Positions 4,095 through 20,289 of a DNA stretch of 26,355 nucleotides are shown piece after piece. Position 1 is the first letter of the stretch, and each line of letters starts with the position of its first letter. The stretch lies in assembly GCA_029907105.1 (NCBI GenBank), contig JARYMM010000050.1, positions 1 to 26,355 on the forward strand. The letters are read 5' to 3'. The DNA comes from Anaerolineae bacterium (GTDB lineage: Bacteria; Chloroflexota; Anaerolineae; UBA3071). The position numbers were made by a program, and so were the translations under genes. A model generated the notes under the pieces. That model worked only from the letters and a program-made list of their open reading frames with translations. It was not told the DNA's origin and did not search any database.

Positions 4095-4174
4095 TTGGTA
4101 TATTGGTAAACTGGTAACTGGTAAATTGGTGTGCGATACGAGTTTACCAATCTACCAATGTACCCATCTACCAA
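4095..4174. repeat. Mirror array of hexamers: 5x TTGGTA-like, then 4x TACCAA-like, period 7-8 bp
   Basis: TGGT(A/G) starts at 4096, 4104, 4112, 4119 and 4127. TACC(A/C)A starts at 4145, 4153, 4161 and 4169. The segment is AT-rich in a GC-rich genome. It lies between the stop of the 4183-5172 gene and the start of the ATPase gene at 4081. Confidence 0.7.
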
Positions 4175-4182
4175 CGACCGGT

Positions 4183-5172
4183 CTACCGGCTTGTGGGCAC
4201 CGCCCCGGGAACGGAAGGCTCCGCCCGCGGCTCCAACGCCGGCAAGGCCCGTCGCGCCGGTTCCCTGACCCGCACCACGGTGTGTTTGACCAGGCGAGAC
4301 CAGGTGGCCACCGGCCGAAAGCCACGCTCGCTCAACGGTGTGCGCACCCCACTTTGATACTCCCGCACCAGGCAGTAGACCGGCCGTGGCGGGTAGGCGG
4401 ACAGGACGGCCAGGCCCCGCTCCAGGAGCGCCAGCGGTTCCGAGGCCTCCCGAAAATCGCCCCACAGCCGCAGGCAATGTCCGAAGCGTCCGGGCTGCAC
4501 CAGCACCAGGCCGGCGATCTCCCCGTCTCGCTCCAGCACGAAGCGCTCCCAGCGACCCGGCATCTGTCCTGGCAGCGATGCGTCATCCTCCGGGCCTCCC
4601 AGGCCCTCCGCCTGTTGCACCAGGCGTGGCGTGATGGCCGTGTAGAGCTGGTACAACGCCCCGCCGTCCGTCGCGGCCAGGGGCCTGACCCGTTGCGCGC
4701 CCGGCCCTGGCTCGGCGGGCCGCTCGGTGCCGTACACCTCCTCCCGTGTGTAGGGGCTGAAGCCCATCTGCACGAACAGCGAGAGCATCTCCTGAGCCTC
4801 CTGGGGCAGGCTGGCAAAGAGCCGCTGCACCCGCTGCTCGCCGGCCTGCTGGGCGCAGTAGGCCAGCAGGCGACGCCAGAGGACGGCGATCTTCTCCTCC
4901 CCGGTCAACGCCGGGGCCAGGAAAACGATATCCGCTTCGGGGCGGCCAGGCCGCACGCGCATCTGGATGGCACCTCCTCCGGCTTCCCTGGAGACGTAGG
5001 TCACCGCGTCGCCGGCCCACCAGCGGAACGGCGCGCTCAGCGCCGTCCACGCCGGTGGCTCGCCGCCGGCCAGGGCGCAGTGCGGGTCAAGCCACACCCC
5101 GCGCGGCTGCAGGCGGTGGAGCAGGAAGAAATCACCCAGATCAAAGAGACGGATCATATCTCGGAAATCCAA
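4183..5172 (-). CDS. Conserved hypothetical protein, possibly a two-lobed GNAT-type acetyltransferase
   Basis: 329-aa ORF with coding-like GC3. Segments such as RFVLERDGEIAGLVLVQPGRFGHCLRLW and ERGFRPV resemble GNAT beta4/alpha3 and C-terminal motifs. The listed start is TTG; an ATG lies 5 codons downstream. The functional call is weak. Confidence 0.4.
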   Translation of the reverse strand: MDFRDMIRLFDLGDFFLLHRLQPRGVWLDPHCALAGGEPPAWTALSAPFRWWAGDAVTYVSREAGGGAIQMRVRPGRPEADIVFLAPALTGEEKIAVLWRRLLAYCAQQAGEQRVQRLFASLPQEAQEMLSLFVQMGFSPYTREEVYGTERPAEPGPGAQRVRPLAATDGGALYQLYTAITPRLVQQAEGLGGPEDDASLPGQMPGRWERFVLERDGEIAGLVLVQPGRFGHCLRLWGDFREASEPLALLERGLAVLSAYPPRPVYCLVREYQSGVRTPLSERGFRPVATWSRLVKHTVVRVREPARRALPALEPRAEPSVPGAVPTSR

Positions 5173-5245
5173 AGTTCAAAAACCAAAGTCCAAAGGAGGG
5201 CCGGAAAGCCCGTTATTCACCGGGAATGAGGCCCGCCCACATCTG

Positions 5246-6958: not shown

Positions 6959-9900
6959 TCACCGGGGGCGGCTCAATACCCAGATGTATTCGTAGCCTTC
7001 CACCAGCAACTCCTGGCCCGAAAAGGCAATCGGCTCCGGCACATTGGCGCTGGCGAACACCGTGTACACCCCTTCATCCAACTCCGCCGACCAGGTGTCG
7101 CCTGGCTTCAGGATGGCCGACTCGTCGCCGAAGGAAAGGGTCATCGGCCCCTGCAGGTTGTTGGTCACGCGCACGAGGGCCTTATCGCCAAGAGAGAGCG
7201 GCTCGATCTGAGGACGGGGCAGCATCCGTTCCCCGCCCTTTCCGGGCGTTGACGTCGGCTTCAGGGGGACTTCTTCCTGGCGCAGGGAAAGCTGATAGAC
7301 CTTGCGTTCATTGGGCAGGGCCAGCCACAGGTAGCCCTGTCGGTCAAAGGCCAGAATCGGGTAGTACGGGAAGGCTCCGATGCCCAGGCTGCCCTCTCGC
7401 AGCAGTTCACCGCTGAAGTTCAAACGGTACCAGGTGCCAAAGGTGTTCACCGCCCACAATCCATCGGGAGCCCAGGCCAGCGCCTCGGCACTGCCAAAGA
7501 TGGGCGCATGGAAGGTCTGCAGGGATGCGCCATCGGCGCTGAACCTCAGCAGGAACTCACCTCTATACTCCCACACCGCGCCATCGGCCGGATCCCGGGC
7601 TTGAACAGCGGTGATGCCCCGAGGCTGCGGAAAAGACTCCAACACCGTGCCCGTCGGGTCCAGCCGCACAACCCGGTTGCCCGGATAATCGCTCAACGTC
7701 AGAAGCAGCGTCGCACCGTCCCAGGCCAGACCCCGGATGGGGTTCGTGAAGGTGATCGGGAAAGAGGCCAGCGGCGTGCCAATGCGGTCCAGTTGATACA
7801 GCCGCTGCTGCTGCCCATCGGCCACCCAGAGGGTATCGCCGGCCACGGCCAGGGCGGCGGGATCGGGGCCGGGGGCGAAGAACTCGCTCACCACGGCTTC
7901 GGGGACGAAGATGAATCGGCTGGAAGGCAGGCCCACCGCGGTCGGCGAGGCAGCCGCTGCTGTGGGCACGGCTTCCGGCGTAGGAGTCGGCGTGGCTGGC
8001 TGAGGCGTGGGTTGGGGCGAGCGCGTAGGGGCAGCCGTTTCCGTGGAGGTCGGCAGCAACAGCCCCGCCAGGTCAATAGCCGGCGCGCCGGGAACCTGTA
8101 GGCGCAGCTCGTCGGCCTCTGAAGGAACCAGCCAGGCCAGAGTCAGCTCCGGCCACTGGCCATCGAAGGATGGGATATCTACGTCACCCTGATGAGAGAA
8201 GCTGACCCCTTCAGAGGTGCTCTTGACTTCGTACACCAGTTGCAGGCCGGGGGGCTTGAGGCGAGACATGATGATTTTGCCTTCCACCTGGCCGACGGCG
8301 TACTCTTCGGGCATAGGGGTCGCGCTGATCCGGATTCCGCTCGGAGCGTACACCTGTCCCCGGTTGTCCACTATGGAGATGTCTTCCAGGTTCAGAATGG
8401 CTCCCGCCGTCGGATTGTTGAGCCCCAGTTCTACGACCACGAAGACCCGGCCGATGCCTGCGATATGCTGGAGCGGCGGCTGTGCGCCGGATTGGCCGGG
8501 GCGTTTTTCTTCCAGGAAATACGCCCGCCGCGCCGAGGACACCCTGGCCTGCCAATCGCTGCCCGACGAACGAGCATGTGCCTCGGCCTTTGCCAGGGCC
8601 ACGTTCAGCCTGTATACCGCCAACTCCCCGGCGAGAGTGTCCCTGCCAATGGCCCAGAGATATCCATCGCCCCAGGCCAGGCCCTCGATCTGGTAGACCG
8701 GCGAAGGAAACGAGGCCAATTCCCTGCCCTGGGCGTCCAGCAGGGCGAGCACCGAGGGCGAAGGGAATTCGTGGTAGGCGACCCACAGACAGGAGCCATC
8801 CCACTCCAGGCCCAGGACGTTCTTGGGATAAGCGAAAGTGCTCAGAATACCCCCTGTGGCATCCAGGCGATACACATGGTACTGGTTCGCATACCACAGC
8901 GCCTGGCCGTCCCACGATAGATCGTTGGTGATGTCGCCACCGAACACCTGCGCCGGCGATTGGAAAGAGCTGAGCGTTTTCGGCTCCCGTCCCTCAAACC
9001 GGAAGCGGTAAATGAAGCCGTGGTTGGTTGTGAAAAGCCAGAAGCCGGTGCCGTCCCAGGTCAGACCTTGCGGCGTCACCTCGGGGGCCTGGAAGGCATC
9101 CAGGAGCGTGCCCGAGGGATCAACCTGGAAGAGGGTTCCCGAATTGTCGGCCAACCACAGGTGTGCCCCATCCCAGGCGATTCCCTCTGCCAGATGGCCG
9201 GGGGCTGCGAAGCGCTGCACGATGGAAATCCAGGCCACGGTAGGAGTTGGGGTGGCCGTTGGCCTGGCCATTGTTGTGGGTGTCATCGTCGGTGTGAAAC
9301 GTGAGAGGGGAGACGCAGCGATGATCTCTGCTGACGTTGGCGCGGGCGTGAGCAGGGACGCCATCTGACGGGTCAGGGTCGGTGGCACTGCTTCGGAACG
9401 AGGTCGTATCCCGAACCACCACAGGAGCACCAGCGCGGCGACGATCAAGAGCAGGGCAACGACAAGCGCTGGCCGCAGAGGCCGGGGCAGCAGGCGAGGC
9501 GCGGGAGGCGGCGTTGGGGGGCGTTCTGGCCCTGCAGGCGGCGTCGGCGGGCTTTCCGGCTGGCCCCCGGCCTGTAACACCGCCTCGACCGTCTCGGCAA
9601 GCCTCCCCAGGTGCTTCTCCAGGGGTGGGGTCAGCGCGTCCAGCCAGTGGATGGGCTTGATGTAATACCCCAGCTCCTTGGAGGGCTGCACATCTTCCAC
9701 ACGGAAGGGGATGACGGGGATGCCCCTGTCCACTGCCTCGCCCACTTCTCTGATCACCTGCCGTGACTTGTTGGCCCCGTCGGAGAAGACCAGGATGAAG
9801 ACGCGGCTTTTGTCAATCGCGTCAATGAGGGTGCTGGCCCAGGCTTCGCCGGGCAGCACATCCCGCGGGGCGATCCAGCAACGGATCTTCCTGTTTTCCA

Positions 9901-9970
9901 GGGTGGCACATACAGCGTCGGCGATCGCTTTATCTCGAGCCGAATAGCTGATGAACACGTCGTGTGCCAT
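6959..9970 (-). CDS. TIR domain - single TM - two extracytoplasmic beta-propeller-like repeat modules (membrane receptor-like TIR protein)
   Basis: 1003 aa. The N-terminal TIR_2-type domain reads HDVFISYSARD ... RCWIAPRD ... VFILVFSDGANKSRQVIREVGEA, and the conserved Glu is present. The TM helix is ALVVALLLIVAALVLLWWF (about aa 167-187, nt 9410-9472). Pro/Thr-rich linkers follow. Blade-like repeats carry G(L/I)(A/T)WDGxxLW (glutaminyl-cyclase-like propeller), once after the TM and again after a central Ig-like module (VFVVVELGLNNPTAG...IVDNRGQVY). Confidence 0.85.
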   Translation of the reverse strand: MAHDVFISYSARDKAIADAVCATLENRKIRCWIAPRDVLPGEAWASTLIDAIDKSRVFILVFSDGANKSRQVIREVGEAVDRGIPVIPFRVEDVQPSKELGYYIKPIHWLDALTPPLEKHLGRLAETVEAVLQAGGQPESPPTPPAGPERPPTPPPAPRLLPRPLRPALVVALLLIVAALVLLWWFGIRPRSEAVPPTLTRQMASLLTPAPTSAEIIAASPLSRFTPTMTPTTMARPTATPTPTVAWISIVQRFAAPGHLAEGIAWDGAHLWLADNSGTLFQVDPSGTLLDAFQAPEVTPQGLTWDGTGFWLFTTNHGFIYRFRFEGREPKTLSSFQSPAQVFGGDITNDLSWDGQALWYANQYHVYRLDATGGILSTFAYPKNVLGLEWDGSCLWVAYHEFPSPSVLALLDAQGRELASFPSPVYQIEGLAWGDGYLWAIGRDTLAGELAVYRLNVALAKAEAHARSSGSDWQARVSSARRAYFLEEKRPGQSGAQPPLQHIAGIGRVFVVVELGLNNPTAGAILNLEDISIVDNRGQVYAPSGIRISATPMPEEYAVGQVEGKIIMSRLKPPGLQLVYEVKSTSEGVSFSHQGDVDIPSFDGQWPELTLAWLVPSEADELRLQVPGAPAIDLAGLLLPTSTETAAPTRSPQPTPQPATPTPTPEAVPTAAAASPTAVGLPSSRFIFVPEAVVSEFFAPGPDPAALAVAGDTLWVADGQQQRLYQLDRIGTPLASFPITFTNPIRGLAWDGATLLLTLSDYPGNRVVRLDPTGTVLESFPQPRGITAVQARDPADGAVWEYRGEFLLRFSADGASLQTFHAPIFGSAEALAWAPDGLWAVNTFGTWYRLNFSGELLREGSLGIGAFPYYPILAFDRQGYLWLALPNERKVYQLSLRQEEVPLKPTSTPGKGGERMLPRPQIEPLSLGDKALVRVTNNLQGPMTLSFGDESAILKPGDTWSAELDEGVYTVFASANVPEPIAFSGQELLVEGYEYIWVLSRPR

Positions 9971-9983
9971 TGGGGATCATTTC

Positions 9984-12473
9984 CTATGCCTGCCGGCGGA
10001 TCTCCAACCCCACTTTGGCCAGGAACTCCGGTATCCGGCGCACCGTTTCTCGATCCCACTCCTTCACGTCGTCGGGGAGCGCCGACCAGGGCACCAGATA
10101 GGGGTTGGTTTTCCTGTACACGTCCCGCTTTTCACCCCGGGTCCAGCCGTCCAGCAGTCGCTCGGCCACCCAGCGCCCATGTTCCATCTCCGCCATGACC
10201 TCGACCTCGCTCTCCGTGAAGGTGATCGGCGAAACCTGGCCGCTGGCCACGCGGTGCACGGTGCAGCCGATCTGGCGCAGCTTCTCCGCCATGTGGTCGG
10301 CCTGTTGGCGGTTCGACTCCTTGAGGTTTTCCAGGAGGGCATTCCATTCGGCCAGCGAGGGGTCTTCGCTGGCCCGGCGGCCGGCCTGGAGCTGGCGGAA
10401 GGCCTCGTGAATGGCGCGGCCGAGGCTCTCGCGCAGCTCAGGCTCCAGCCTGGGGTTGCCCGAGCCGATGAAGGCGCGGACGGTCATGGCGTCGGCGGGC
10501 AAGCGCAGCAAGCGGCTGGAGGTATGCCAGTCCTCGTCGGCGAGCAGTTGGGCCACGGCGCGTCCGCTGCCCTCGATCACCGCCACGCGGGCCCCCAGGG
10601 CCAGCGCCAGCCGGTATTCGGCGGCGGCGATAGCGCCCCCGTTGATGCCCAGCAGCCTGACCTGCTCCGGTGAAATGCCGGAGGCGACGAGGTCAGTCCA
10701 GTATTGCAGCGCTTCCAGGGGGCTGAAATCGTGGCCGGTGGTGCGCCGGATCTCGCCGTAGCGCTCGTCCACGGTCACGCCCGCCGGGATCACCTGGGGG
10801 ATATAGCCGATAGTGCGGATGGCCGCAGGGTAGGCCTGCTGTACCTCGCCGGCCAGGCCGCTGATCCCGGCCATGGTGCCGCCGCAGATGAGCGTGCCCC
10901 GGAAGTCGCGGAAGCCTTCCCGCAGGAGCCGGCGGTAGGTTTGCATCTCCTGCTCCACGCTGGCATCGCAGCCGCCGCTCAGGATCACCACCGGGCCGGC
11001 CACCGCCGGGTGCCCGGGGGAAGCCAGCCGGCTCACCTGCTCCAGGACGGCAGGATGGGGAAACTTCACGCCCCATCCCAGCAGCAGCAGCCTGCGCGCC
11101 CATTCGTGTCCTGGCAGAGCCTCTTCGACGACGGAGAGCCTGTCCAGGGAGCGCAACGAGGTCTCGACCATCCACTCTTTTGTGCTGAGCCGGACCGCCC
11201 TGGCATAGGCGGTGAGGCTCTCGTAAGGCTTCCCCAGCAACAGGTAGAGCTTTCCCATGTCGTAGAAGGCCCAGGGCAGGTTCACGCCTACGTCGGCCTG
11301 GTCCCGGCAGCGCCGGATCGCCGCCTGGATGGCAGGGGTCAGCAGACGCACCACGGAAATATCTTTGCTCTCGACAATCTCGCATTCCAGATAGTTGCCA
11401 AAGGGATACGGGTCGGTGGGATCGAGTTCGAACGCCTGGCGGTAGTATTCTTTGGCCTTGCGGTCGTCAATCCCCTTCCACGTGCCGGCCAGGGAGGCCA
11501 GGGCGTCCGCATCTGTGCAGGGCGGCGCGCAGGCAGCCTCAAGGTAAGCCCGGCCTTGCCGGTATGGCGGGCTTTCCGGGTCCGCCCGATGCTGTTTGCA
11601 CAGGGCCACGCCGAGATCGCGCAGGATCGGCGGGTAGCCTGAAGGGACGTATGGACTGAGCACCTCTATGGCCTTCGGCCAGTCGCCCAGGGCGATGGCC
11701 AGCTTGCCGATACGGTGGGCCAGTTCGGCATTCTGTGGGTCGCAGGCCAGCACAGTCTCCAGCAAGGCCATCTCCTCCCGCATTTGCTCCTCGGACATAT
11801 AAGCGCCGTAGTTGGCGGCGTAGGTCTTGAGGCCGGCCTCGATGGCAGCGAAGGCATTGTCCACGCGCTCCAACATGGCGGCCAGGCCGGCGAACTCCCG
11901 TTGCCAGCGGGCCGGAACCGGAAACGGGCTTTTGTAGACCAGCCGGTGGTTGAAATCGGCCCAGGCATGCTCCAGGATCGTCCTGACCTGGATCTCGGCC
12001 TTCAGCCCGAGTACCTCTTGCGGGATCGCCACGTTTATATCCTTTGTCGGGAAGATGCCGGGCCTGAACTGGACGATGTAATGCACCGAGCGGTAGCCGA
12101 ATTCGGTGGGCTTCAGCCTTTGGGAGACGTCTATCGTGTTCGCCCGGTCCACGTCAAAATGCTGTTCGATGAAGGCGCAGATGGCCTTGACCTCCTCCGG
12201 CGTATGGGTGATGACACGTCCACCGCACAGGTCGGTGATCTGATTGACCGGGTCGCGGTACTTGGCCTTCTTACGCTGGATCTTCTCCGCAAAGCTGGCG
12301 ATGGACTTTGCCCGTGTCTGCACGATGGCTTCCGGTGCGTAGCGCCGGGCGGCTTGTTCGAGCACCTGGCGCAGGGTCTGGGCAAACGTCACATAGCGGG
12401 GCCGTGTGGCCCGGTATTTCTCGATCTGCTCGCAGGCCCATCGCAGATCCGCCTCTTGAGTTGAATCTGCCAA
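9984..12473 (-). CDS. RelA/SpoT-type nucleotide pyrophosphokinase (no HD hydrolase) - TPR-like region - SLOG/LOG-like Rossmann domain - RyR domain
   Basis: 829 aa.
- Synthetase motifs (nt about 11919-12356): TRAKSIASFAEKIQRK, DLCGGRVI, FGYRSVHYIV, EIQVRTILEHAWADFNH.
- Helical TPR-like repeats, aa about 235-470.
- SLOG-like motifs (nt about 10464-10997): VVILSGGCD, TLICGGTMAGISGLAG, LGINGGAIAAAEYRLALALGARVAVIEGSGR.
- C-terminal RyR-type repeat (nt about 9999-10436): AIHEAF...LKESNRQQADH...MAEMEHGRWVAERLLDGWTRGEKRD...NPYLVPWSALPDDVKEWDRETVRRIPEFL. Confidence 0.8.
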   Translation of the reverse strand: MADSTQEADLRWACEQIEKYRATRPRYVTFAQTLRQVLEQAARRYAPEAIVQTRAKSIASFAEKIQRKKAKYRDPVNQITDLCGGRVITHTPEEVKAICAFIEQHFDVDRANTIDVSQRLKPTEFGYRSVHYIVQFRPGIFPTKDINVAIPQEVLGLKAEIQVRTILEHAWADFNHRLVYKSPFPVPARWQREFAGLAAMLERVDNAFAAIEAGLKTYAANYGAYMSEEQMREEMALLETVLACDPQNAELAHRIGKLAIALGDWPKAIEVLSPYVPSGYPPILRDLGVALCKQHRADPESPPYRQGRAYLEAACAPPCTDADALASLAGTWKGIDDRKAKEYYRQAFELDPTDPYPFGNYLECEIVESKDISVVRLLTPAIQAAIRRCRDQADVGVNLPWAFYDMGKLYLLLGKPYESLTAYARAVRLSTKEWMVETSLRSLDRLSVVEEALPGHEWARRLLLLGWGVKFPHPAVLEQVSRLASPGHPAVAGPVVILSGGCDASVEQEMQTYRRLLREGFRDFRGTLICGGTMAGISGLAGEVQQAYPAAIRTIGYIPQVIPAGVTVDERYGEIRRTTGHDFSPLEALQYWTDLVASGISPEQVRLLGINGGAIAAAEYRLALALGARVAVIEGSGRAVAQLLADEDWHTSSRLLRLPADAMTVRAFIGSGNPRLEPELRESLGRAIHEAFRQLQAGRRASEDPSLAEWNALLENLKESNRQQADHMAEKLRQIGCTVHRVASGQVSPITFTESEVEVMAEMEHGRWVAERLLDGWTRGEKRDVYRKTNPYLVPWSALPDDVKEWDRETVRRIPEFLAKVGLEIRRQA

Positions 12474-12487
12474 GGCACACCTCCGTG

Positions 12488-12916
12488 CTAAGGCTGCCCA
12501 GGCTGCTGGCCGTAAGCCTGGGCGAAGGGCCGGAATTGCTCGACCAGGTCCATCCCCAGAAGGTCGTGAGGGGCGACCCAGGCGTAGTCCTCGTGTTCGC
12601 TGCTCAGGCGCACCTGGCCGGACTCCAGGCGGCCTTCCAGGATCAGATAGGCGACCTTACGCGTGGGCATCTCGGACTCCGCGGCCCCGGCCACCCGGTG
12701 CAGGGAGACCGTCAAACCTGTCTCCTCGGCCACCTCGCGCAGGAGCGCGGCGTCGAAATCCTCCCCAGCCTCCACCTTGCCGCCGGGGAACTCCCACTTG
12801 CCGGGATTGCCCTTCGAACTCGCCGACCGCCGCAGCAGCAGGCAGCGGTCGGCCTCATCGCGGATCACGACTTTGATAGACAGCGCAAACGGTTTGTCAG
12901 ACATGTAGCATTCCAT
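12488..12916 (-). CDS. Nudix (MutT-like) hydrolase
   Basis: 142 aa with a complete Nudix box, GGKVEAGEDFDAALLREVAEETGL (GX5EX7REUXEEXGU). An alternative ATG lies at 12904. Only 14 nt separate it from the downstream RelA/SpoT-SLOG-RyR gene. Confidence 0.9.
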   Translation of the reverse strand: MECYMSDKPFALSIKVVIRDEADRCLLLRRSASSKGNPGKWEFPGGKVEAGEDFDAALLREVAEETGLTVSLHRVAGAAESEMPTRKVAYLILEGRLESGQVRLSSEHEDYAWVAPHDLLGMDLVEQFRPFAQAYGQQPGQP

Positions 12917-12955
12917 GTAGTGAATTTGCCTTCTTTAGCGCTCCCGAATGCCTGC

Positions 12956-13002
12956 CCCTCACCCCTGTCCCTCTCCCATTGGGAGAGGGACAGGGGTGAG
13001 GG
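12956..13002. repeat. 47-nt near-perfect palindrome (23-nt arms) spanning the stop codon of the TIR-WD40 gene
   Basis: ccctcacccctgtccctctccca (12956-12978), then t, then tgggagagggacaggggtgaggg (12980-13002). The TGA stop (12959-12961) and the last roughly 14 codons (..PVPLPMGEGQG*) are encoded by the palindrome. It sits 40 nt upstream of the Nudix start. Confidence 0.85.
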
Positions 13003-15814
13003 CGGAAGGCGTGCACAGGTCTGGCAGATTGGGGCAGGTGGGACGGCAAGGCTCGTCACCGATGTACTGTTGCCACTCCTCCAGGGTCAGATTCCTGGGC
13101 AGACGGGCGCAGGCCTCGGCAATCACATCCTCCGGCCTCCACAACGACACCTGCACCGTGCCATCGCTGTGCCCCGAGGCCACCCATCGCCCATCAGGGC
13201 TGAAGGCTACGGCCTTTACCGTACCTCTGTGTTCCATACGGGCCATCTCCTGCCCGCTGGCTGCCTCCCACACCCGTGTTGTGCCATCTCTGCCTCCTGA
13301 CGCTACCCACGTCCCATCGGGGCTGAAGGCCACGCCTTCTGTCACATCCCTGTACTCCATCCGGGTCACCTCCTGACCGCTCGTGACCTCCGCTATGCGC
13401 ACGGTGTTGTCCCCCATCCCCAAGGCTACCGCCACCCACTTACCGTCAGGGCTGAGCGCCAGGTCATTTACATAACTCTCGTAGGCAATGCGGGTCACCT
13501 CCTGGCCGGATGCGGCGTCCCAAACCAGCACTGTGCCATGTTGGTCCCCAGAGACCACCCACCTTCCGTCGGGGGTGAAGGCCACGCCGCTTATCGGGCC
13601 ATCGTGCACCATCCGGGCCACCTCTCTTCCAGAAGCTATCTCCCGTACCCGCACTGTGTTGCCCAAACTCCCTAACCCTATCGCCAACCGCTGTCCGTCG
13701 GGGCTGAAAGCCATAGCCGTCACCTCATACCTGTCCTCCAGCCGAGCCACCTCCTGCCCGGTGGTCACTTCCCACACCCGTATCGTTCCCTCCCCGCTCC
13801 CCGAGGCCAGCCACTGGCCATCAGGGCTGAAAGCTATGGCTCTCACGTAGCTGTGCTCCATGCGGGCCACCTCCTGCCTGGTGGCCACCTCCCACAATCG
13901 CACCGTGCCATCCGCACTCCCCGAAGCCATCCATCGCCCATCGGGACTGAAGGCCAGAGTGCTGACCTCGCCCTGGTGTTCCATCCGGGCCACTTCCCAG
14001 ATGCGCACTCTGTTGTCCTCGCTGCCTGTCACCACCCGTCGCCCGTCGAGGCTGAACGCCACGGCGTTCACCGCCCCTCCGTGGAACATCCGGGCCACCT
14101 CCCGCCCGCCGGCCGCCTCCCACACTCGCGCCGTGCCATCTCTGCTCCCTGACAGCACCCATCTTCCATCAGGGCTGAAGATCACGGTTTCCACTCCACC
14201 GTCATGTCCCCTCGAGGCCACGATGCGCCCACTGTTTGCCTCCCACACGCGCATGGAGTAGTCCCAACTTCCTGAGGCCACCCACCTTCCGTCGGGGCTG
14301 AAGGCCACGGCGTTCACAGGCCCGCCGTGTACGACGCGGGCTATCTCCTGGTCGGTAGCCACCTCCCAGACCAGCGCGGCGTTATCTCCCCATCCTCCCA
14401 ATGCCACACGCTCGCCGTCGGGGCTGAAAGCCACCGTCCATACCCGTCCCCCGCGTTTCATCCGGGCTATCTCCTGCCCGGTGGCTGTCTCCCACACGAC
14501 GGCTCCGCCGTCATTTTCAAATGGCCGTTCATATCCTGACACCAGCCACCTTCCGTCGGGGCTGAAGGCCACGGCCGTGACCTCACCCTCGTGCAGCATC
14601 TTCGCCGTCTCCTGCCCGGTGGCAACCTCCCATATCCGTGCACTGTGGTCGCGGCTTCCAGAGGCTACCCACCTTCCGTCGGGGCTGAAAGCCACCGCTT
14701 CCACCGACCCTTCATGCGTGACACGGGCCACTTCCTGTCCGCTGGCGGCTTCCCACACCCGCATCGTGCCGTCCGCGCTTCCCGATGCTATGTGCTTTCC
14801 ATCGGGACTGATGGCCACGATGCGCACGGCCCCCTCATGCCTCATGCGAGCCACTTCTCGCCCCGTAGTCGCCTCCCATAGGCGCACCGTGGCATCCTCG
14901 CTCCCCGACACGGCCCACCGGCCGTCGGGGCTGAAGGCCACGGCATTGACCTTACCTTCATGCGCTGCCTGGGCCACCAGCGGAGGAAACAGGGCCAGCC
15001 CACGGTGCAGGACCTGGTCTCCTTCCAACGAAGGGAAGCGCCGCATGGACTCCGTAGCCAGCAGCATACTCCACAGCAGTCCGCTGCCCGTTTCCCCCCA
15101 TACCATCTGCGCCTGGGCCGCCAGTTGCCGGGCCATGGCCACCTGGCGCTGTTCTTGCGCCTGAGCCTGGGCCGTGGCCCGCACCTGGGCTTCCATTACC
15201 ACTGTGGCCTGGGCCATTTCGGCCTGGGCCTGCGCCGTGCTGCGGACCTGTGCTTCGGCCGCGGCAGTCGCCTCGGCGGCGGCTGCCTCCTGGCGCGCCT
15301 GGCCGGCCTCCAATGTCCGCTGGCCAGCATACCGGACCAGGCCGACAGAGATCAGGACGAAGGCCAGGACAAAGACAGCCGTCAGAAGGCGACGCCGAAA
15401 GCGGCGCTGTTCGTCGCGGCGCTTCAGCTCGTCAAAGCTCACGCCCAGCATGCCTGCCAGCAGCTTGAGCCTGGCGTTGGCCCTGCCGTCCCCCTGCCGG
15501 CGGGCATCAGCGGCCACGGGTTCCATCTGCCTGAGCGCCGGCGGAAAGCACTCGCGCTCGTCGCGGCTGTTGGGCTCGCCATCCACGATGAAGGCGAAAA
15601 CCCGCTCGCTGCGGCCCAGTTCGGCGAATGTCTCGATCTCCCGGTTTACCCACCTGGACCGCGCGGCACGCGGAGAACAGACCACGATCAGATAGCGCGA
15701 AGCGGCCAGGGCCTCTTCGATGGCTTTACCCAGGTCCGCGGAGGCGGGCAGCTCGTCGCGGTCGCGGAAGACGGGTTGGAAGCGCCTGGGAGCCAGATCC
15801 CCTGCCGGCGTCAC
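12959..15814 (-). CDS. TIR domain - single TM - coiled coil - 15 WD40 repeats. Coordinates use the first canonical start (GTG); the true N-terminus is probably upstream, near 15940
   Basis: 951 aa from the GTG at 15814.
- TIR core: RYLIVVCSPRAARSRWVNREIETF ... VFAFIVDGEP, with the conserved Glu present.
- The first TIR strand and helix (YWAFISYSSKDTAHAKWLHRAIETYGIP) are encoded in frame upstream of the GTG; I translated this by hand.
- A strongly basic segment (KRRDEQRRFRRR) precedes the TM helix LLTAVFVLAFVLISVGLV (nt about 15335-15391).
- An Ala/Gln-rich coiled coil follows.
- Then come 15 repeats of the type HxGxVxAVAFSPDGRWVASGSxDGTxRVWEVATGQEVARM. Confidence 0.9.
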   Translation of the reverse strand: MTPAGDLAPRRFQPVFRDRDELPASADLGKAIEEALAASRYLIVVCSPRAARSRWVNREIETFAELGRSERVFAFIVDGEPNSRDERECFPPALRQMEPVAADARRQGDGRANARLKLLAGMLGVSFDELKRRDEQRRFRRRLLTAVFVLAFVLISVGLVRYAGQRTLEAGQARQEAAAAEATAAAEAQVRSTAQAQAEMAQATVVMEAQVRATAQAQAQEQRQVAMARQLAAQAQMVWGETGSGLLWSMLLATESMRRFPSLEGDQVLHRGLALFPPLVAQAAHEGKVNAVAFSPDGRWAVSGSEDATVRLWEATTGREVARMRHEGAVRIVAISPDGKHIASGSADGTMRVWEAASGQEVARVTHEGSVEAVAFSPDGRWVASGSRDHSARIWEVATGQETAKMLHEGEVTAVAFSPDGRWLVSGYERPFENDGGAVVWETATGQEIARMKRGGRVWTVAFSPDGERVALGGWGDNAALVWEVATDQEIARVVHGGPVNAVAFSPDGRWVASGSWDYSMRVWEANSGRIVASRGHDGGVETVIFSPDGRWVLSGSRDGTARVWEAAGGREVARMFHGGAVNAVAFSLDGRRVVTGSEDNRVRIWEVARMEHQGEVSTLAFSPDGRWMASGSADGTVRLWEVATRQEVARMEHSYVRAIAFSPDGQWLASGSGEGTIRVWEVTTGQEVARLEDRYEVTAMAFSPDGQRLAIGLGSLGNTVRVREIASGREVARMVHDGPISGVAFTPDGRWVVSGDQHGTVLVWDAASGQEVTRIAYESYVNDLALSPDGKWVAVALGMGDNTVRIAEVTSGQEVTRMEYRDVTEGVAFSPDGTWVASGGRDGTTRVWEAASGQEMARMEHRGTVKAVAFSPDGRWVASGHSDGTVQVSLWRPEDVIAEACARLPRNLTLEEWQQYIGDEPCRPTCPNLPDLCTPSALTPVPLPMGEGQG
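13139..14962 (-). repeat. Intragenic tandem array of 15 WD40 units of about 126 bp (42 codons), with recurrent near-identical DNA blocks
   Basis: Strings such as tcggggctgaaggccacggc and ccatcagggctgaaggc recur at roughly 126-bp intervals on the plus strand. They encode the AFSPDG core of each blade. One unit is shortened (..RVRIWEVARME) and one is lengthened (GYERPFENDGGAVV). Confidence 0.85.
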
Positions 15815-15937
15815 ATGCCCGTGCTCTACCAGCTTGGCCGGGATGCCGTAGGTCTCGATGGCACGGTGCAGCCATTTGGCGTGGGCCGTATCTTTGCTGC
15901 TGTAGCTGATGAACGCCCAGTAACGGTATTCCTGAGG

Positions 15938-15955
15938 GATGGCTGCTTCCTCCTC
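15938..15955 (-). promoter_or_regulatory. Strong Shine-Dalgarno (GAGGAGG) plus an in-frame ATC, the candidate non-canonical start of the TIR-WD40 gene
   Basis: Minus strand: ACC GAG GAG GAA GCA GCC ATC CCT CAG GAA TAC CGT TAC TGG GCG TTC ATC AGC TAC AGC. GGAGG (15953-15949) is followed by an 8-nt spacer and then ATC (15940-15938). No ATG, GTG or TTG lies in frame between the TAA at 15982-15980 and the GTG at 15814. Confidence 0.4.
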
Positions 15956-15979
15956 GGTGAAAGCCTCCCCTGGGGGCCT

Positions 15980-17776
15980 TTAGTTTAGCCGATATACCTG
16001 CAACCCCGCCCGCGCCAGAAGGCGCGGCAACTCGCGGACGGTGTGGCGGTCTTTCTCCTTTTCCGATGCGGGCAACTCGTCCCACGGTACCAGGTCGGGA
16101 CTGGTCCTCCTTTCCAGGTCCTTGGGCCCTGGGGCATAGGTCCAGCCGGCACGCCGCCGCTCCTCGACGAAGCGCTGGTGTTCCATCTCGGCCATCCGCT
16201 CGACTTCCTCCGCCGTGAACTGGAACCGCTCCGCCTCCCAATCGGTCAAAGGGGCGATGGCGCAGCCAACGGCCCTCAGTTTCACGCCGATGTGGTCTGC
16301 CTGACGCCGGTTGGACTCCTTGAGGCCCTCCGGCAGTTCGTCCCAGGGCACCATCGAGGGGTTGGACTCGGGGGTCTGGCCCTGCTCCGCCTGATGGCGC
16401 ACGTACTCTTCGTGGATGGCCCGCGCCAGCATCTCGTGCGTGCCGCCGAGCAGCAACTCCGGCCGGCAGGTGCGATCCAGCAGGCCAAAAGCGTGCAGGT
16501 TAGCAAAGGCACCGCCTTCGCCCTCCGCCCGGCGCAGCAGCGTGGCCAGCCCTGCCTCGTCGCTCATGCGCACGACGATGGGAATCGCCCGCCCTCGAAG
16601 CTTTTGCAGCAGCGTCAGGCCGGCGGTCAGGCCGGCGGAATCGTCGCCCAGACAGATGTAGATGGCAGTCACGTCGCTACAGCCCTGAGGGTCGAAAAGG
16701 AACTCTGCCCGCTGATACTCCGGCCAGCGGATGTCCATCTGACGGGGGATCAGTTCGCAGACCTGCGCAAGCTGGGGGTAGCGCAGGCCCAGCGTTTGCA
16801 CTTTGCGTTCGGCTTCGCGGTCCACGATGGTAATGCGCAGCCGTGTATCTGCTGTGCCCTGTCGCTCCCGCCAATGGCGCGCGGCGCGCACGACCAGACT
16901 CTGCCCCATGCGTCCCAGCCCCACCACCAGCAGGTGCGGTGGGGTGGCCGGGGCCGGCCCTGCTTCGTCAAAGGGCGGATATTCCTCCAGCAGGGCGCGG
17001 GCCCCCAGCCCGTAGACGTTGAAGAACTCCAGCCGGAAGGCGCCGCTATCCTCCAGCTCCCGCTCCCGAAGCAGGTCGCACAGTTGGGGGTCCACCAGGT
17101 GGACGAAGCGGGTCAGAGGCTCCTCGCGGCCGGCGGCCAGTTGGCGGGCGTGGACGGCGATCTCGGCGTTGACGCCGTCATCCCCGCCGGCCGCGACCAG
17201 GTATCTGGCCGCCTGGACCCCGGCGCGGTGCAACAGGTGCGGGTCCGTCGCGTCGCCGATCAAGACCATCGCCCCCTGGTCGCGACATGGCCCCAGCAGG
17301 TGGTCGTCCTCGTTCTGTTCGATGACCACGACCTGCTCGCCCCGGGCGAGAAACCCTTTGGCCAGCAGGAAGCCCTTGCGACCCAGCCCGCAAATCACCA
17401 CGTGATCGCGGATGAAGCGCAGGCGCAGCGACTGGAACTGCTCCGAGAAAAGGACGGTCAGGGCCCGCACGGCGGTATAGGCGGCCACGGTCGGGGCCAG
17501 GAGCCGCGCCACCTCCAGTTCCCAGCTTTTGGGTCCGGGGAGCGAGCCAGACTCCAGCGTGAACAGTTGCAGGGCCAGGTAGAAGAGATCCCAGGGCGAG
17601 CGGGTCTCCTGCCGCGCCGCAAAGAGCCTGGCGAAGCCCAGGTAGCCCAGAACCGGCGTGACCAGCCACAGCCCGCCGATCACGCCCCACTGGATGTCAT
17701 GCCATCGGTGTCGCCCCTGTTCCCGCCAGAACGTCTTCAGGCGGTTCCACCACTTCAGCCCGCCCGGGTTGTTCAT
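15980..17776 (-). CDS. Membrane protein: 2-TM channel-like N-terminus - two TrkA-N (RCK-type NAD-binding Rossmann) domains - C-terminal RyR domain
   Basis: 598 aa.
- Hydrophobic helices: WGVIGGLWLVTPVLGYLGFARLF and ARLLAPTVAAYTAVRALTVLF. They flank a short helix and loop, WDLFYLALQLFTLESGSLPG.
- Rossmann GxGxxG motifs: VVICGLGRKGFLLAKGFLARGEQVVVIE and LLVVGLGRMGQSLV.
- RyR-type repeat (nt about 15992-16435), clearly paralogous to the C-terminus of the 829-aa protein: AIHEEY...LKESNRRQADH...MAEMEHQRFVEERRRAGWTYAPGPKD...SPDLVPWDELPASEKEKDRHTVRELPRLL. Confidence 0.8.
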   Translation of the reverse strand: MNNPGGLKWWNRLKTFWREQGRHRWHDIQWGVIGGLWLVTPVLGYLGFARLFAARQETRSPWDLFYLALQLFTLESGSLPGPKSWELEVARLLAPTVAAYTAVRALTVLFSEQFQSLRLRFIRDHVVICGLGRKGFLLAKGFLARGEQVVVIEQNEDDHLLGPCRDQGAMVLIGDATDPHLLHRAGVQAARYLVAAGGDDGVNAEIAVHARQLAAGREEPLTRFVHLVDPQLCDLLRERELEDSGAFRLEFFNVYGLGARALLEEYPPFDEAGPAPATPPHLLVVGLGRMGQSLVVRAARHWRERQGTADTRLRITIVDREAERKVQTLGLRYPQLAQVCELIPRQMDIRWPEYQRAEFLFDPQGCSDVTAIYICLGDDSAGLTAGLTLLQKLRGRAIPIVVRMSDEAGLATLLRRAEGEGGAFANLHAFGLLDRTCRPELLLGGTHEMLARAIHEEYVRHQAEQGQTPESNPSMVPWDELPEGLKESNRRQADHIGVKLRAVGCAIAPLTDWEAERFQFTAEEVERMAEMEHQRFVEERRRAGWTYAPGPKDLERRTSPDLVPWDELPASEKEKDRHTVRELPRLLARAGLQVYRLN

Positions 17777-18855: not shown

Positions 18856-20241
18856 TTATTCTCCTGCAATGACCATCTGCTCGAAGCGGATCGCTTCCGG
18901 TCCGAGGTACTCGCCCAGGAAGGCCACCTCCCGCGCGTAGGTAGCCTGGGCAAACCCGTCGAAGAGATTGGCGCTCAGCGCCCCACCCTTGATGGGCGTC
19001 ACCCTGTCACCATCTACGACGTAACCCAGGCGGATTTCGGCTACCACGTCGCCGGTAACCATGTCGGGCACCATATCGGAGAAAGCCACGATGTGGATCA
19101 GCGGCCCGTCGGCCAGGAGCTCGGCCAGCGGGGTCGTGCCCGGCGGGATGACCAGGTTGCCGAAAGCGCCGGTGGGCTCGATGCCCAGGTACTCGGCGTA
19201 ACGTTGGTTGGCCCAGAAGCGGCGCAACACGTTGTCCTCGATGATGACGACATCGCGCCCCGGCAACCCCTCGGCATCGCAAGGCCCGCTGTTCAGCCCA
19301 AAGGGCAGCAGGGCATCGCTGCGCAGATGGAGTGGCTCGCCTCGCACTTCTCGCAGGCCGAACACGCTCTGGCCCACCTCCAACTGGCTGAGCTTCTGGA
19401 ACTTGCTCTGCGCCGAGCTCTGCACGCGGAAGAAGGCCAGCATGTCCAGCAACGCTTCGCGGCTGATGACCACGGGGCCACGGTGCCCGGGGGGCACGGT
19501 GGCCCGCAGCGCGTCCCGCGCCTGGGCCGCCTTGCGCGCCACCAGCGCCGGGACATCGAAATCGGCCGCCCGGCGGCGCTGCTGGGCGGTGTGCATCTCC
19601 GATTCGTTGGCCCCATCGCTGGAGATGAGCACGAAGTCGAACAACGCCTGGCTGCTCCGCACGGCGGCCTGGACGCCGCGGCTGTTGCGCAGTTCGCTTT
19701 CCCCCACCTCCAGGAAACACTCGCTGCTGGACAGGCGCACCTGCGGCTGGCGGCTGGCGGCAGCGATCAGTTGGCCGCGCAGCTCGTCGAGCACTGCCCG
19801 CGGCTCTTCTGCCAGCCGCGGATCGAGGACCTCGACCGCCGGATAATCCGCCGGGCCAGGCAGGCCAAAGGGAGGGTTGCTGACCAGCCCGGCCATGAAG
19901 ACCGCCTCCTCCAGTTTGCGGGCGATGGCCGTGTCGTCATCCTGCGGCAGCACGACGAAGCTGGCCTCGCCGCGGGCCAGGTCGCCCTCCGGCCCTGGGT
20001 GGTCGTTGTAGATGCGCACCCTGGCGCGCACCGTTTCCACGCTGCGCTCGCTCTCCACCCGCTCGCCGACCAGGAAGAGCTGATGGCTGCGCTTGTGGTT
20101 AAGCTCCACCTGCCAATCGTGGACGGCAGTGTGGGCCTGTAGATGTCTGATAATTTGCTCTAGCACAGTGTACCCCCTCAAAAGAGACAAGGGGAGGAGA
20201 GGGGAGACAAGGAGATCTACAGCTTGTAGGCCTCCAGTCAT
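18856..20241 (-). CDS. pmbA: PmbA/TldE-type partner of the TldD metalloprotease (no HExxxH motif)
   Basis: 461 aa, with the family-typical C-terminus IVAFSDMVPDMVTGDVVAEIRLGYVVDGDRVTPIKGGALSANLFDGF. The start is uncertain. The listed ATG (20241) lies inside a long hairpin. An in-frame GTG at 20166 has a better Shine-Dalgarno (GAGGGGG, 6-nt spacer) and would remove the odd LLVSPLLPLSLL leader. Confidence 0.8.
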   Translation of the reverse strand: MTGGLQAVDLLVSPLLPLSLLRGYTVLEQIIRHLQAHTAVHDWQVELNHKRSHQLFLVGERVESERSVETVRARVRIYNDHPGPEGDLARGEASFVVLPQDDDTAIARKLEEAVFMAGLVSNPPFGLPGPADYPAVEVLDPRLAEEPRAVLDELRGQLIAAASRQPQVRLSSSECFLEVGESELRNSRGVQAAVRSSQALFDFVLISSDGANESEMHTAQQRRRAADFDVPALVARKAAQARDALRATVPPGHRGPVVISREALLDMLAFFRVQSSAQSKFQKLSQLEVGQSVFGLREVRGEPLHLRSDALLPFGLNSGPCDAEGLPGRDVVIIEDNVLRRFWANQRYAEYLGIEPTGAFGNLVIPPGTTPLAELLADGPLIHIVAFSDMVPDMVTGDVVAEIRLGYVVDGDRVTPIKGGALSANLFDGFAQATYAREVAFLGEYLGPEAIRFEQMVIAGE

Positions 20242-20280
20242 GCCGAATGTCTCCCCGTCTCCCTGTCACCTTGTCTCTTT
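20181..20280. repeat. About 100-nt imperfect inverted repeat (extended hairpin) between tldD and pmbA
   Basis: Four nested pairings are visible. aaagagacaagg (20181-20192) pairs perfectly with ccttgtctcttt (20269-20280). ggaga (20196-20200) pairs with tctcc (20258-20262). ggggagaca (20201-20209) pairs perfectly with tgtctcccc (20248-20256). The inner ctaca/tgtag pair lies at 20217-20229. GAGAC and GTCTC pentamers recur in the arms. Confidence 0.75.
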
Positions 20281-20289
20281 GTCTCAAGA

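Follow-up and report, generated by a model that had tools for sequence, protein, structure and literature searches.

A five-gene block of TIR, Nudix, RelA/SpoT-SLOG-RyR and TrkA-RyR proteins in an Anaerolineae genome: a candidate TIR-based nucleotide-signalling conflict system

Gene content of the block

We analysed a 26,355-nucleotide stretch of DNA from an Anaerolineae bacterium (assembly GCA_029907105.1, contig JARYMM010000050.1), hereafter the window, and within it a tightly packed block of five co-directional genes on the minus strand (17776..6959), designated (a) to (e) in reading order. An earlier reading made from the letters of the window (hereafter the sequence-only reading) had placed five genes here and proposed that they make up a nucleotide-signalling system matching no named defence system. 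An open reading frame (ORF) check bore out the five genes with their coordinates and strand, and the domains that had been called in the five proteins were each matched by a Pfam profile search. The block is real, evolutionarily linked and, except for the start codon of (b), intact. The G+C content of the window is ~66%, and that of the block is no different from that of its flanks.

Gene (d) (9984..12473, minus strand) encodes an 829-amino-acid (aa) protein consisting of a RelA/SpoT synthetase (aa 1-225), TPR repeats (228-483), an LSDAT-type SLOG domain (494-670) and a RyR module (676-829). Pfam assigns it RelA_SpoT (E-value 1.2e-19), TPRs, LSDAT_prok (8.7e-8; 32.1 bits, cut-off 25.4) and RyR (6.7e-17; 62 bits, cut-off 27.4). 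The core RelA/SpoT motifs that had been read in it (RxKxxxSxxxK, DxxGxR, GYRSxH and EIQVRT) are intact and, like the GG...E motif of the SLOG domain, invariant in 22 homologues. Foldseek searches with its AlphaFold2 (AF2) model (predicted local distance difference test score, pLDDT, 84.6) retrieved the SAS1/RelQ small alarmone synthetases (target-normalised TM-score, TMt, 0.65-0.68), TPR proteins, and RyR3 Repeat12 with ATP, ADP or dantrolene (TMt ~0.6). Sequence matches in the PDB tell the same story, i.e., only RelP/RelQ-type enzymes for the RelA part and RyR Repeat12 for the RyR part; a sequence search with the RelA part did not reach CapRel, FaRel2 or Tas1 at E<=0.01, and none of the NCBIfam and PADLOC models for toxic small alarmone synthetases (toxSAS) is reached by (d). 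The family comprises more than 943 clusters at 55-70% full-length identity. Three of its members (P0101, P0103 and P0120), at ~1055 aa, have an extra KaiC/RecA-like ATPase domain (PF06745). In four archaeal loci (L057, L064, L067 and L076; Thermoplasmatota and Bathyarchaeia), the protein ends after the SLOG domain, at ~670-690 aa, and has no RyR module; all four keep the Nudix gene upstream, and a TIR gene lies nearby in two of them (L064 and L076).

Gene (c) (12488..12916, minus strand; 142 aa, or 138 aa from 12904) encodes a MutT/NudG-type Nudix protein with its Nudix box at 12713-12784. NCBI's Nudix product is 138 aa long and begins at the second Met (12904), and with this start the gap between (b) and (c), previously given as 42 nt, is probably 54 nt. 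Pfam matches (c) as NUDIX (9.6e-24), and the Nudix box is intact, as had been read, and invariant in 45 of 45 sequences. Among the PDB sequence matches, 3grn, a 'MutT related protein', comes first (1e-26), NudI, MutT and NudG come next, and ADPRases or ADP-ribose (ADPR) pyrophosphatases are absent; in NCBIfam, the NudG, MutT and NudI models match below their cut-offs. Judged by these relatives, (c) is like a nucleoside triphosphate (NTP) pyrophosphohydrolase and not like an ADPRase or NUDT9. The suggested parallel with TRPM2 thus fails in its Nudix part. MutT/NudG-type enzymes can hydrolyse (p)ppGpp. Because of its MutT-like relatives, its tight coupling to the RelA gene and this known activity, we consider that (c) more probably acts on the RelA/SpoT product, as a threshold or antidote, than as the resetter of an ADPR signal that the sequence-only reading had made of it.

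Gene (a) (15980..17776, minus strand; 598 aa) encodes a channel-like protein with a first transmembrane helix (TM1), a pore-helix-like segment, a second transmembrane helix (TM2), two RCK/TrkA-N domains and a C-terminal RyR module of the Repeat12/RyDEP-like kind. Pfam reports TrkA_N at 1.2e-22 and RyR at 7.9e-16 (58.5 bits against a cut-off of 27.4). Of the two TrkA-N domains called earlier, the second falls below threshold in Pfam (E 0.048), but it is clear in the AlphaFold model, as residues 281-443, and in the Foldseek matches to GsuK. The AF2 model (pLDDT 83.2) consists of a long transmembrane helix, a short pore-helix-like helix (61-73), a loop (74-84), a second long helix, two Rossmann/RCK domains and a helical RyR module. 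Its top PDB matches in Foldseek are the GsuK structures 4gx5, 4gx0 and 4gx2 (E 7e-12, 511 columns), NAD- and ADP-bound forms included, and these are followed by the TrkA ring, MthK, CASTOR and RyR3 Repeat12. The channel-like reading of (a) is upheld by this best match to a channel that binds NAD and ADP.

With TM1, a pore helix, TM2 and then two RCK domains, (a) has the predicted layout of the GsuK/MthK family of RCK-gated two-transmembrane cation channels, of which GsuK itself binds NAD+ and ADP. Gene (a) differs from these channels in having an extra C-terminal RyR module and in its pore. The pore-helix/filter-equivalent segment, DLFYLALQLFTLESG (17546..17590, minus strand), lacks the TVGYG potassium signature; the filter-equivalent stretch reads TLESG in the window and [LM][EQND]SG in an alignment of 25 homologues, in which the pore segment follows the conserved pattern FYLTLQLFxLESG. 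With TLESG in place of TVGYG, potassium selectivity is therefore not expected for (a). The family has more than 1292 members, and the C-terminus of (a) coincides with those of its homologues. In L090 (349-2290), the nearest relative by synteny, the TrkA-RyR gene is split by a frameshift, with the RyR module in another frame, which may be an assembly error or decay.

The two remaining genes encode TIR proteins. Gene (b) (12959..15940, minus strand) yields 993 aa when counted from an ATC codon, as are all its residue numbers here, and encodes a TIR domain with Glu101 and a transmembrane segment (aa 185-202), after which come a coiled segment rich in Ala and Gln and 15 WD40 blades. It is matched by TIR_2 (2.3e-14), ThsB_TIR (7.4e-10) and WD40 (3e-141). 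The count of 15 blades agrees with the earlier one: an AFSPDG pattern search finds 14, and the fifteenth (MAFSPDG, ~aa 744) was read by eye. GC skew is strongly negative (-0.23 to -0.25) at 13001-15000, over this WD40 array, and the rest of the window is unlike it. Gene (e) (6959..9970, minus strand; 1003 aa) encodes a TIR domain with Glu75 (TIR_2, 7.1e-22), a transmembrane segment (aa 168-188), linkers rich in Pro and Thr, and two blade-repeat domains that are homologous to each other. Compared with one another, these repeat regions (aa 245-464 and 683-901) give an E of 5e-12, which bears out the double propeller described earlier in part; the propeller fold itself is indicated only by sub-threshold Pfam matches (SGL and Phytase-like). 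The ectodomain of (e) is conserved only in its nearest relative, L001, as expected of a diversifying sensor.

The catalytic glutamate noted in both TIR domains is present (E101 in (b), E75 in (e)) and is invariant in 33 of 33 TIR domains from these loci. Of 31 TIR proteins of related loci, 20 have the TIR domain at the N-terminus, a single segment of strong hydrophobicity after it and, towards the C-terminus, a large domain that varies between proteins; among DUF4062 proteins, none of 21 has such a hydrophobic segment. The receptor-like character ascribed to (b) and (e) agrees with this layout, i.e., a catalytic TIR domain, one strong transmembrane segment and variable C-terminal repeats. If the TIR domain is on the cytoplasmic side, the WD40, propeller or LRR part would lie outside the membrane. 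Solved TIR relatives offered little guide to the product, (e) having only weak matches to TIR-STING, TLR2 and RUN1, and (b) having none.

The only plausible start ahead of the TIR domain of (b) is the ATC at 15940, which lies 7 nt downstream of a Shine-Dalgarno sequence, GAGGAGGA. At this place L090 has GAGGAGGAcccatccATGcctgaAGCACCCATCCCTCAG and the window has GAGGAGGAAGCAGCCATCCCTCAG; the window is 15 nt shorter here (15938-15982), and the 15 nt missing relative to L090, between the Shine-Dalgarno sequence and the Ile codon, include the ATG of (b). The ATC at 15940 is the likely start. Alternatively, translation of (b) may be impaired, the gene possibly being poorly translated in this organism. 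The in-frame single stop described at the junction of (a) and (b) is present, but it is also found in L090 and appears incidental. A readthrough fusion of (a) and (b) was rejected: (a) ends as its homologues do, and L090 has its own ATG for (b) past the same stop.

Distribution and linkage of the genes

The (d) family was found in 281 of 185,579 species genomes (~0.15%). Its carriers belong to the Chloroflexota, Gemmatimonadota, Planctomycetota, Actinomycetota, Bacteroidales, Proteobacteria, Verrucomicrobia, Bathyarchaeia, Methanomicrobia and Thermoplasmatota, and a family present in so few species and nevertheless at 55-70% identity from bacteria to archaea implies lateral transfer.

Neighbouring genes were counted within a 6-kb radius of (d) by ORF clustering and iterated profiles, in 78 loci with a called (d) ORF (77 related loci and the window) and in a fully flanked subset of 32 loci, in which 6 kb or more of sequence is available to either side of (d). 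A Nudix gene is present in 50 of the 78 loci and in 22 of the 32 fully flanked ones, a TrkA-RyR gene in 20 and 8, a TIR gene in 21 and 10, and a DUF4062-STAND gene in 19 and 12, respectively. DUF4062-STAND genes were counted apart from true TIR genes because a profile comparison with hhalign was not significant; one or the other is present in 36 of 78 and 20 of 32 loci, and one further DUF4062 gene, missed by the iterated profile, was found by Pfam. The Nudix gene mostly lies immediately upstream of (d) on the same strand (-410 to -570 nt), or else directly downstream, and does so with or without a TIR gene. TIR-like ORFs account for 47 of 641 ORFs within 6 kb of (d) and 5 of 298 farther away (odds ratio 4.6, Fisher p 1.8e-4).

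The linkage was also examined from the other side, starting from three Nudix homologues on contigs that match no listed (d) hit and picked regardless of context. All three had a RelA_SpoT-LSDAT-RyR gene immediately downstream and several TIR genes around them, of the types TIR-LRR, TIR-LVIVD, TIR-PQQ, TIR-WD40 and TIR-TPR. The co-occurrence across genomes that the sequence-only reading had proposed to check is conserved, given the enrichment of TIR-like genes, the presence of Nudix in about two-thirds of loci and these three reciprocal cases. In L090, the gene order is the same as in the window (TrkA, TIR-WD40, Nudix, RelA-SLOG-RyR, TIR-X), and in independent lineages TIR-TPR, TIR-STAND, TIR-LRR, TIR-PQQ and DUF4062-NWD1-WD40 neighbours stand amid housekeeping genes. 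At L088 (3009-11313), two TIR-LRR genes and one TIR-LVIVD gene flank the Nudix/RelA-SLOG-RyR pair, together with a SLATT protein and a 76-aa RyR fragment, giving TLR-like pairings in a bacterium.

Accessory genes of the loci encode ATPase-RyR proteins, ClpB-like AAA+ proteins, SLATT/DUF4231 membrane proteins and YbjN. The ClpB-like protein, a double-AAA+ protein, occurs in 9 loci and is paired with a YbjN-family protein in L041 and L046. The patchy spread, the identity across domains of life, the variable sensor domains and the SLATT, STAND and ClpB-like neighbours bear the hallmarks of a conflict system.

The RyR module as a candidate sensor

The RyR modules of (a) (aa 447-598; 15983..16438, minus strand) and (d) (9987..10448, minus strand) score above the gathering threshold of PF02026 and have a predicted Repeat12 fold (TMt to RyR3 Repeat12 ~0.6), a likeness that they share with RyR Repeat12 and with the phage PF02026 proteins named RyDEP. 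These phage proteins bind 2'cADPR and 3'cADPR (cyclic ADPR isomers) with nanomolar affinity, and one cleaves them to ADPR (PMC13232231, a 2026 preprint); RyDEP is a homodimer, and its contact residues H75, W78, H100 and D117 are reported to be conserved family-wide, animal RyR Repeat12 included (PMC13232231). Repeat12 of RyR3 binds ADP and AMP-PCP (PMC12627627). Using RyDEP-family sequences from the supplement of PMC13232231, we obtained end-to-end alignments of both modules with phage RyDEP, both halves being covered; the module of (d) was also aligned to RyR Repeat12 by HMMER. In a MAFFT alignment with the RyDEP family, the four contacts correspond to H765, W768, N790 and D807 in (d) and to H, F, S and D in (a), so that (d) keeps three of the four, and (a) two plus one conservative change. 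Residues H765, W768 and R772 are invariant in the alignment of 22 (d) homologues. Among the structural neighbours of the (a) model in BFVD are the phage RyR proteins H8 and H3, both of which were tested in PMC13232231.

In L085, L091 and L092 (one syntenic lineage) and in L093, a TrkA-RyR gene, with no SLOG, and an ATPase-RyR gene stand beside TIR or DUF4062-NACHT genes, and no RelA-SLOG gene lies within 8-10 kb of TrkA-RyR in these four loci. ATPase-RyR proteins are ~880-905 aa long, with a P-loop/STAND-like ATPase and a C-terminal RyR module, and look like a third kind of RyR-bearing effector. In five other loci (L032, L036, L040, L050 and L066), the ATPase-RyR gene is directly upstream of a (d) gene that lacks a RyR module of its own. 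Because RyR proteins without SLOG adjoin TIR genes, and because of the homology to RyDEP, the RyR module is a probable signal sensor and a candidate at least on par with SLOG. The sequence-only reading had SLOG read the signal and took RyR for a eukaryotic echo; SLOG remains a candidate, but the role of RyR has to be revised now that it proves to be a full-length RyDEP homologue. We keep both as candidate sensors, since the SLOG-less TrkA-RyR and the RyR-less archaeal (d) each keep TIR neighbours.

Unlike RyDEP, the modules described here are host-encoded, fused to an effector enzyme or channel, and have Asn or Ser as the H100 equivalent. With such a fusion, the module would therefore act as a receptor, not as a sponge or glycosidase. 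No co-evolution of the RyR modules of (a) and (d) within loci was detected (38.7% identity within loci vs. 37.3% between them, p 0.12). A scan of IMG/VR found no phage-carried relative of (d), and tblastn searches of phage genomes with the RyR module gave only weak partial matches.

Comparison with described systems

In agreement with the statement that no named defence system fits the block, PADLOC returned single-gene candidates and weak TIR matches, and no described match was found. Gene (c) matches PDC-S07 (3.5e-23, profile positions 13-128 of 135), with a score no higher than that of the generic Pfam NUDIX model, and (d) matches PDC-S33 at positions 25-175 of 349 only, i.e., over its RelA part. 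Among the PADLOC models, ThsA was not found in the block and ThsB1 was matched only weakly, by (e) (8e-4); no curated cut-off of NCBIfam was reached by the block proteins. A survey of TIR signalling predicts 29 Thoeris types and lists 'SLOG Patatin', 'SLOG and 4TM' and 'Ion channel' type X with the signal given as unknown (bioRxiv 10.64898/2025.12.03.692087); RelA, RyR, TrkA, Nudix and LSDAT are absent from its text and supplements. RelA domains have been described as rare effectors in vWA ternary systems (Kaur et al. 2020). The literature that we searched contained no alarmone synthetase joined with RyR or SLOG, the LSDAT-defining work of Burroughs et al. 2015, which may draw a RelA/SpoT-LSDAT architecture, being outside that set.

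Thoeris (types I-XI), in which the TIR protein ThsB acts with an effector such as the SIR2-SLOG protein ThsA, is similar in that TIR genes with a catalytic Glu adjoin an effector with a sensor domain (SLOG). Several TIR genes per locus are also found in type III and an 'ion channel' effector in type X. In contrast to Thoeris, the effector here is a RelA/SpoT pyrophosphokinase, there is a second candidate sensor (RyR/Repeat12), and Nudix is a near-obligate partner; ThsB is small and cytosolic, whereas the TIR proteins here mostly cross the membrane once and carry large C-terminal repeat domains that vary from one to another. Small alarmone synthetases and toxSAS (RelQ/RelP, FaRel, CapRel) share with (d) the synthetase fold and all catalytic motifs, and, as in toxSAS systems, a small neighbouring gene could neutralise the product. 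However, toxSAS toxins are small and essentially single-domain, whereas (d) runs to 829 aa and has TPR, SLOG and RyR domains besides the synthetase, and its partner is a Nudix protein rather than a small alarmone hydrolase (SAH), Panacea or another proteinaceous antitoxin.

The components of TRPM2 (LSDAT-SLOG, channel and NUDT9-H) and of the link between cADPR and RyR also find counterparts in the block, where SLOG, Nudix, a channel-like protein, a RyR Repeat12 module and TIR (a putative cADPR-type synthase) are encoded together. The parts are on separate polypeptides here, SLOG is on (d) and not on the channel-like (a), the Nudix protein is MutT-like, and the channel is RCK-type rather than TRP or RyR. 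The components are shared, but the pathway is not orthologous.

Flanking genes

The genes around the block are housekeeping genes, encoding an LpxL-like acyltransferase, NfeD, an AAA/R3H protein, Memo-AMMECR1, a DUF7309/DUF6930 protein, two TldD/PmbA paralogues and HisRS. The two TldD/PmbA paralogues stand in tandem (18856-21771) beside the DUF7309/DUF6930 gene, which is separated from (a) by 36 nt. When related loci were searched for DUF7309/DUF6930, Memo-AMMECR1 and one TldD/PmbA paralogue, none of these was found to recur; because of this absence, we place the flanking genes outside the system and leave the borders of the block as given above. A promoter/terminator scan for the operon boundaries was uninformative. 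Two regions hold long ORFs that have no Pfam match, namely 4126-5229, where a 367-aa ORF on the plus strand overlaps a 329-aa ORF on the minus strand, and 23476-25545 (689 aa, minus strand).

Interpretation and alternatives

We believe that the block is probably a TIR-based nucleotide-signalling conflict system of Thoeris-like build, with new sensors and effectors, most likely directed against phages or other invaders. From the domain identities, the intact catalytic motifs, the ligand motifs that are wholly or partly kept, the predicted folds and the linkage across phyla, we infer every step of its mechanism as follows. The TIR proteins (b) and (e) would sense a cue via their variable extracytoplasmic beta-propeller domains, and their cytoplasmic TIR domains would then use NAD+ to make a signal derived from ADP-ribose, probably one of the cADPR isomers. 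Homology suggests that the readers of this signal would be the RyR modules carried by (a) and (d), or the LSDAT-SLOG domain of (d), or both kinds of domain. Binding of the ligand would switch on the RelA/SpoT pyrophosphokinase of (d), which is closest to RelP/RelQ, and arrest growth, and it would gate the GsuK-like channel (a) and so perturb ion balance or membrane potential. The Nudix protein (c), encoded immediately upstream of (d), would hydrolyse the pyrophosphorylated product or, less likely, the signal, thereby setting an activation threshold and guarding the cell against leaky activity. Thoeris-like TIR signalling with RyR- and SLOG-bearing effectors and a Nudix partner is the best reading of the block.

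Several observations speak against this reading. The block sits between housekeeping genes and not in a classical defence island, and all 80 (d) loci listed come from metagenome-assembled genomes. For 11-12 of the 32 fully flanked loci, neither a TIR nor a DUF4062 gene could be detected in the 6-kb radius, and DUF4062 is not supported as a TIR relative, the TIR and DUF4062 profiles of these loci aligning in hhalign with a probability of only ~1%. TrkA-RyR stands alone in L086 and L087. The phosphate-contacting H100 of RyDEP is replaced by Asn in (d) and by Ser in (a), and W78 by Phe in (a); the ligand may therefore differ from that of RyDEP. Lastly, an extracytoplasmic WD40 array would be unusual, and (b) offers no ATG, GTG or TTG start ahead of the TIR domain.

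An alternative that we consider unlikely is that the core is a self-contained toxin-antitoxin-like pair, with (d) as a RelA/SpoT toxin and the Nudix protein (c) as its antidote. The SLOG and RyR domains would then sense ordinary adenine nucleotides or products of NAD+ depletion, and the TIR and STAND genes would be independent NADase-type defence genes that are merely clustered with the pair, or that lie upstream of it only by lowering NAD+. The pairing of Nudix with (d) is the most conserved one (50 of 78 loci, whether or not a TIR gene is present), the Nudix protein is NTP-pyrophosphohydrolase-like, and the RelA domain is closest to alarmone synthetases; moreover, RyR Repeat12 binds plain ADP and ATP, and 11-12 of the fully flanked loci lack a TIR-like gene. 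Nevertheless, TIR-like genes are ~4.6-fold enriched within 6 kb and usually run in the same direction as the core, packed closely against it, their catalytic Glu is kept in 33 of 33 domains, and the RyR family binds TIR products specifically (PMC13232231). The 829-aa multidomain architecture of (d) is also unlike that of known toxSAS.

It is likewise doubtful, and in our estimation quite unlikely, that the RyR modules are homotypic adaptors, comparable to the effector-associated domains of ternary conflict systems, which couple (a), (d) and ATPase-RyR while SLOG alone reads the signal. One type of module does occur at the C-terminus of different proteins of a locus, the ATPase-RyR protein would supply RyR in trans in the five loci where (d) has none (L032, L036, L040, L050 and L066), RyDEP is a homodimer, and archaeal (d) does without RyR altogether. 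However, residues H, W and D, which contact the ligand in RyDEP, are conserved or even invariant, the two RyR modules of a locus show no signal of co-evolution (p 0.12), and TrkA-RyR is found with TIR genes and no SLOG protein nearby, and also alone. One of the solo genes lies in L087 (1-9809), directly after kynurenine-pathway genes for de novo NAD synthesis (3-HAO, ACMSD-like, KYNU and an FAD monooxygenase), possibly by coincidence. This neighbourhood, together with the solo occurrence of TrkA-RyR itself, the housekeeping flanks, the binding of NAD and ADP by the RCK domains of GsuK, the presumed extracytoplasmic sensor domains and the lack of viral or mobile carriage in the IMG/VR scan, would fit a physiological module outside any conflict, in which a sensor of NAD(H) or adenylates couples potassium or ion homeostasis to a stringent-type response on cues from envelope receptors. 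We think this very improbable for genes that are present in ~0.15% of species and yet in both bacteria and archaea at 55-70% identity, with hyper-variable sensors, NACHT/STAND, SLATT and ClpB-like neighbours and, in one case, an integrase.

If TIR signalling with RyR- and SLOG-bearing effectors is indeed what the block does, a more specific proposal can be made, which we regard as possible but put forward only tentatively. In bacteria and archaea, host RyR (Repeat12) modules may be the cellular receptors for the cADPR isomers that TIR proteins make, one copy gating a GsuK-like channel and another switching on an alarmone-type pyrophosphokinase, with the signal coming from TLR-like single-pass TIR receptors that carry extracytoplasmic propeller or LRR domains. 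RyR-type modules would then be genuine receptors for TIR signals, built into effector proteins. They would also be the host counterpart from which the phage RyDEP sponges derive, and would supply the host side that the RyDEP discovery lacks.

The proposal would, if true, provide a prokaryotic antecedent of the long-debated link between cADPR and the ryanodine receptor, and whether RyR Repeat12 binds cADPR-type molecules and controls a channel would become directly testable in simple proteins. TIR immunity would gain alarmone synthesis (or another pyrophosphorylation) and the gating of an RCK channel, with a Nudix protein to set the threshold, and NAD-derived immune signalling would for the first time be found wired into the chemistry of the stringent response. 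Finally, membrane TIR receptors with variable ectodomains (WD40, LRR, PQQ and NHL-like) would suggest outside-in sensing reminiscent of Toll-like receptors, spanning many little-studied phyla, archaea included.

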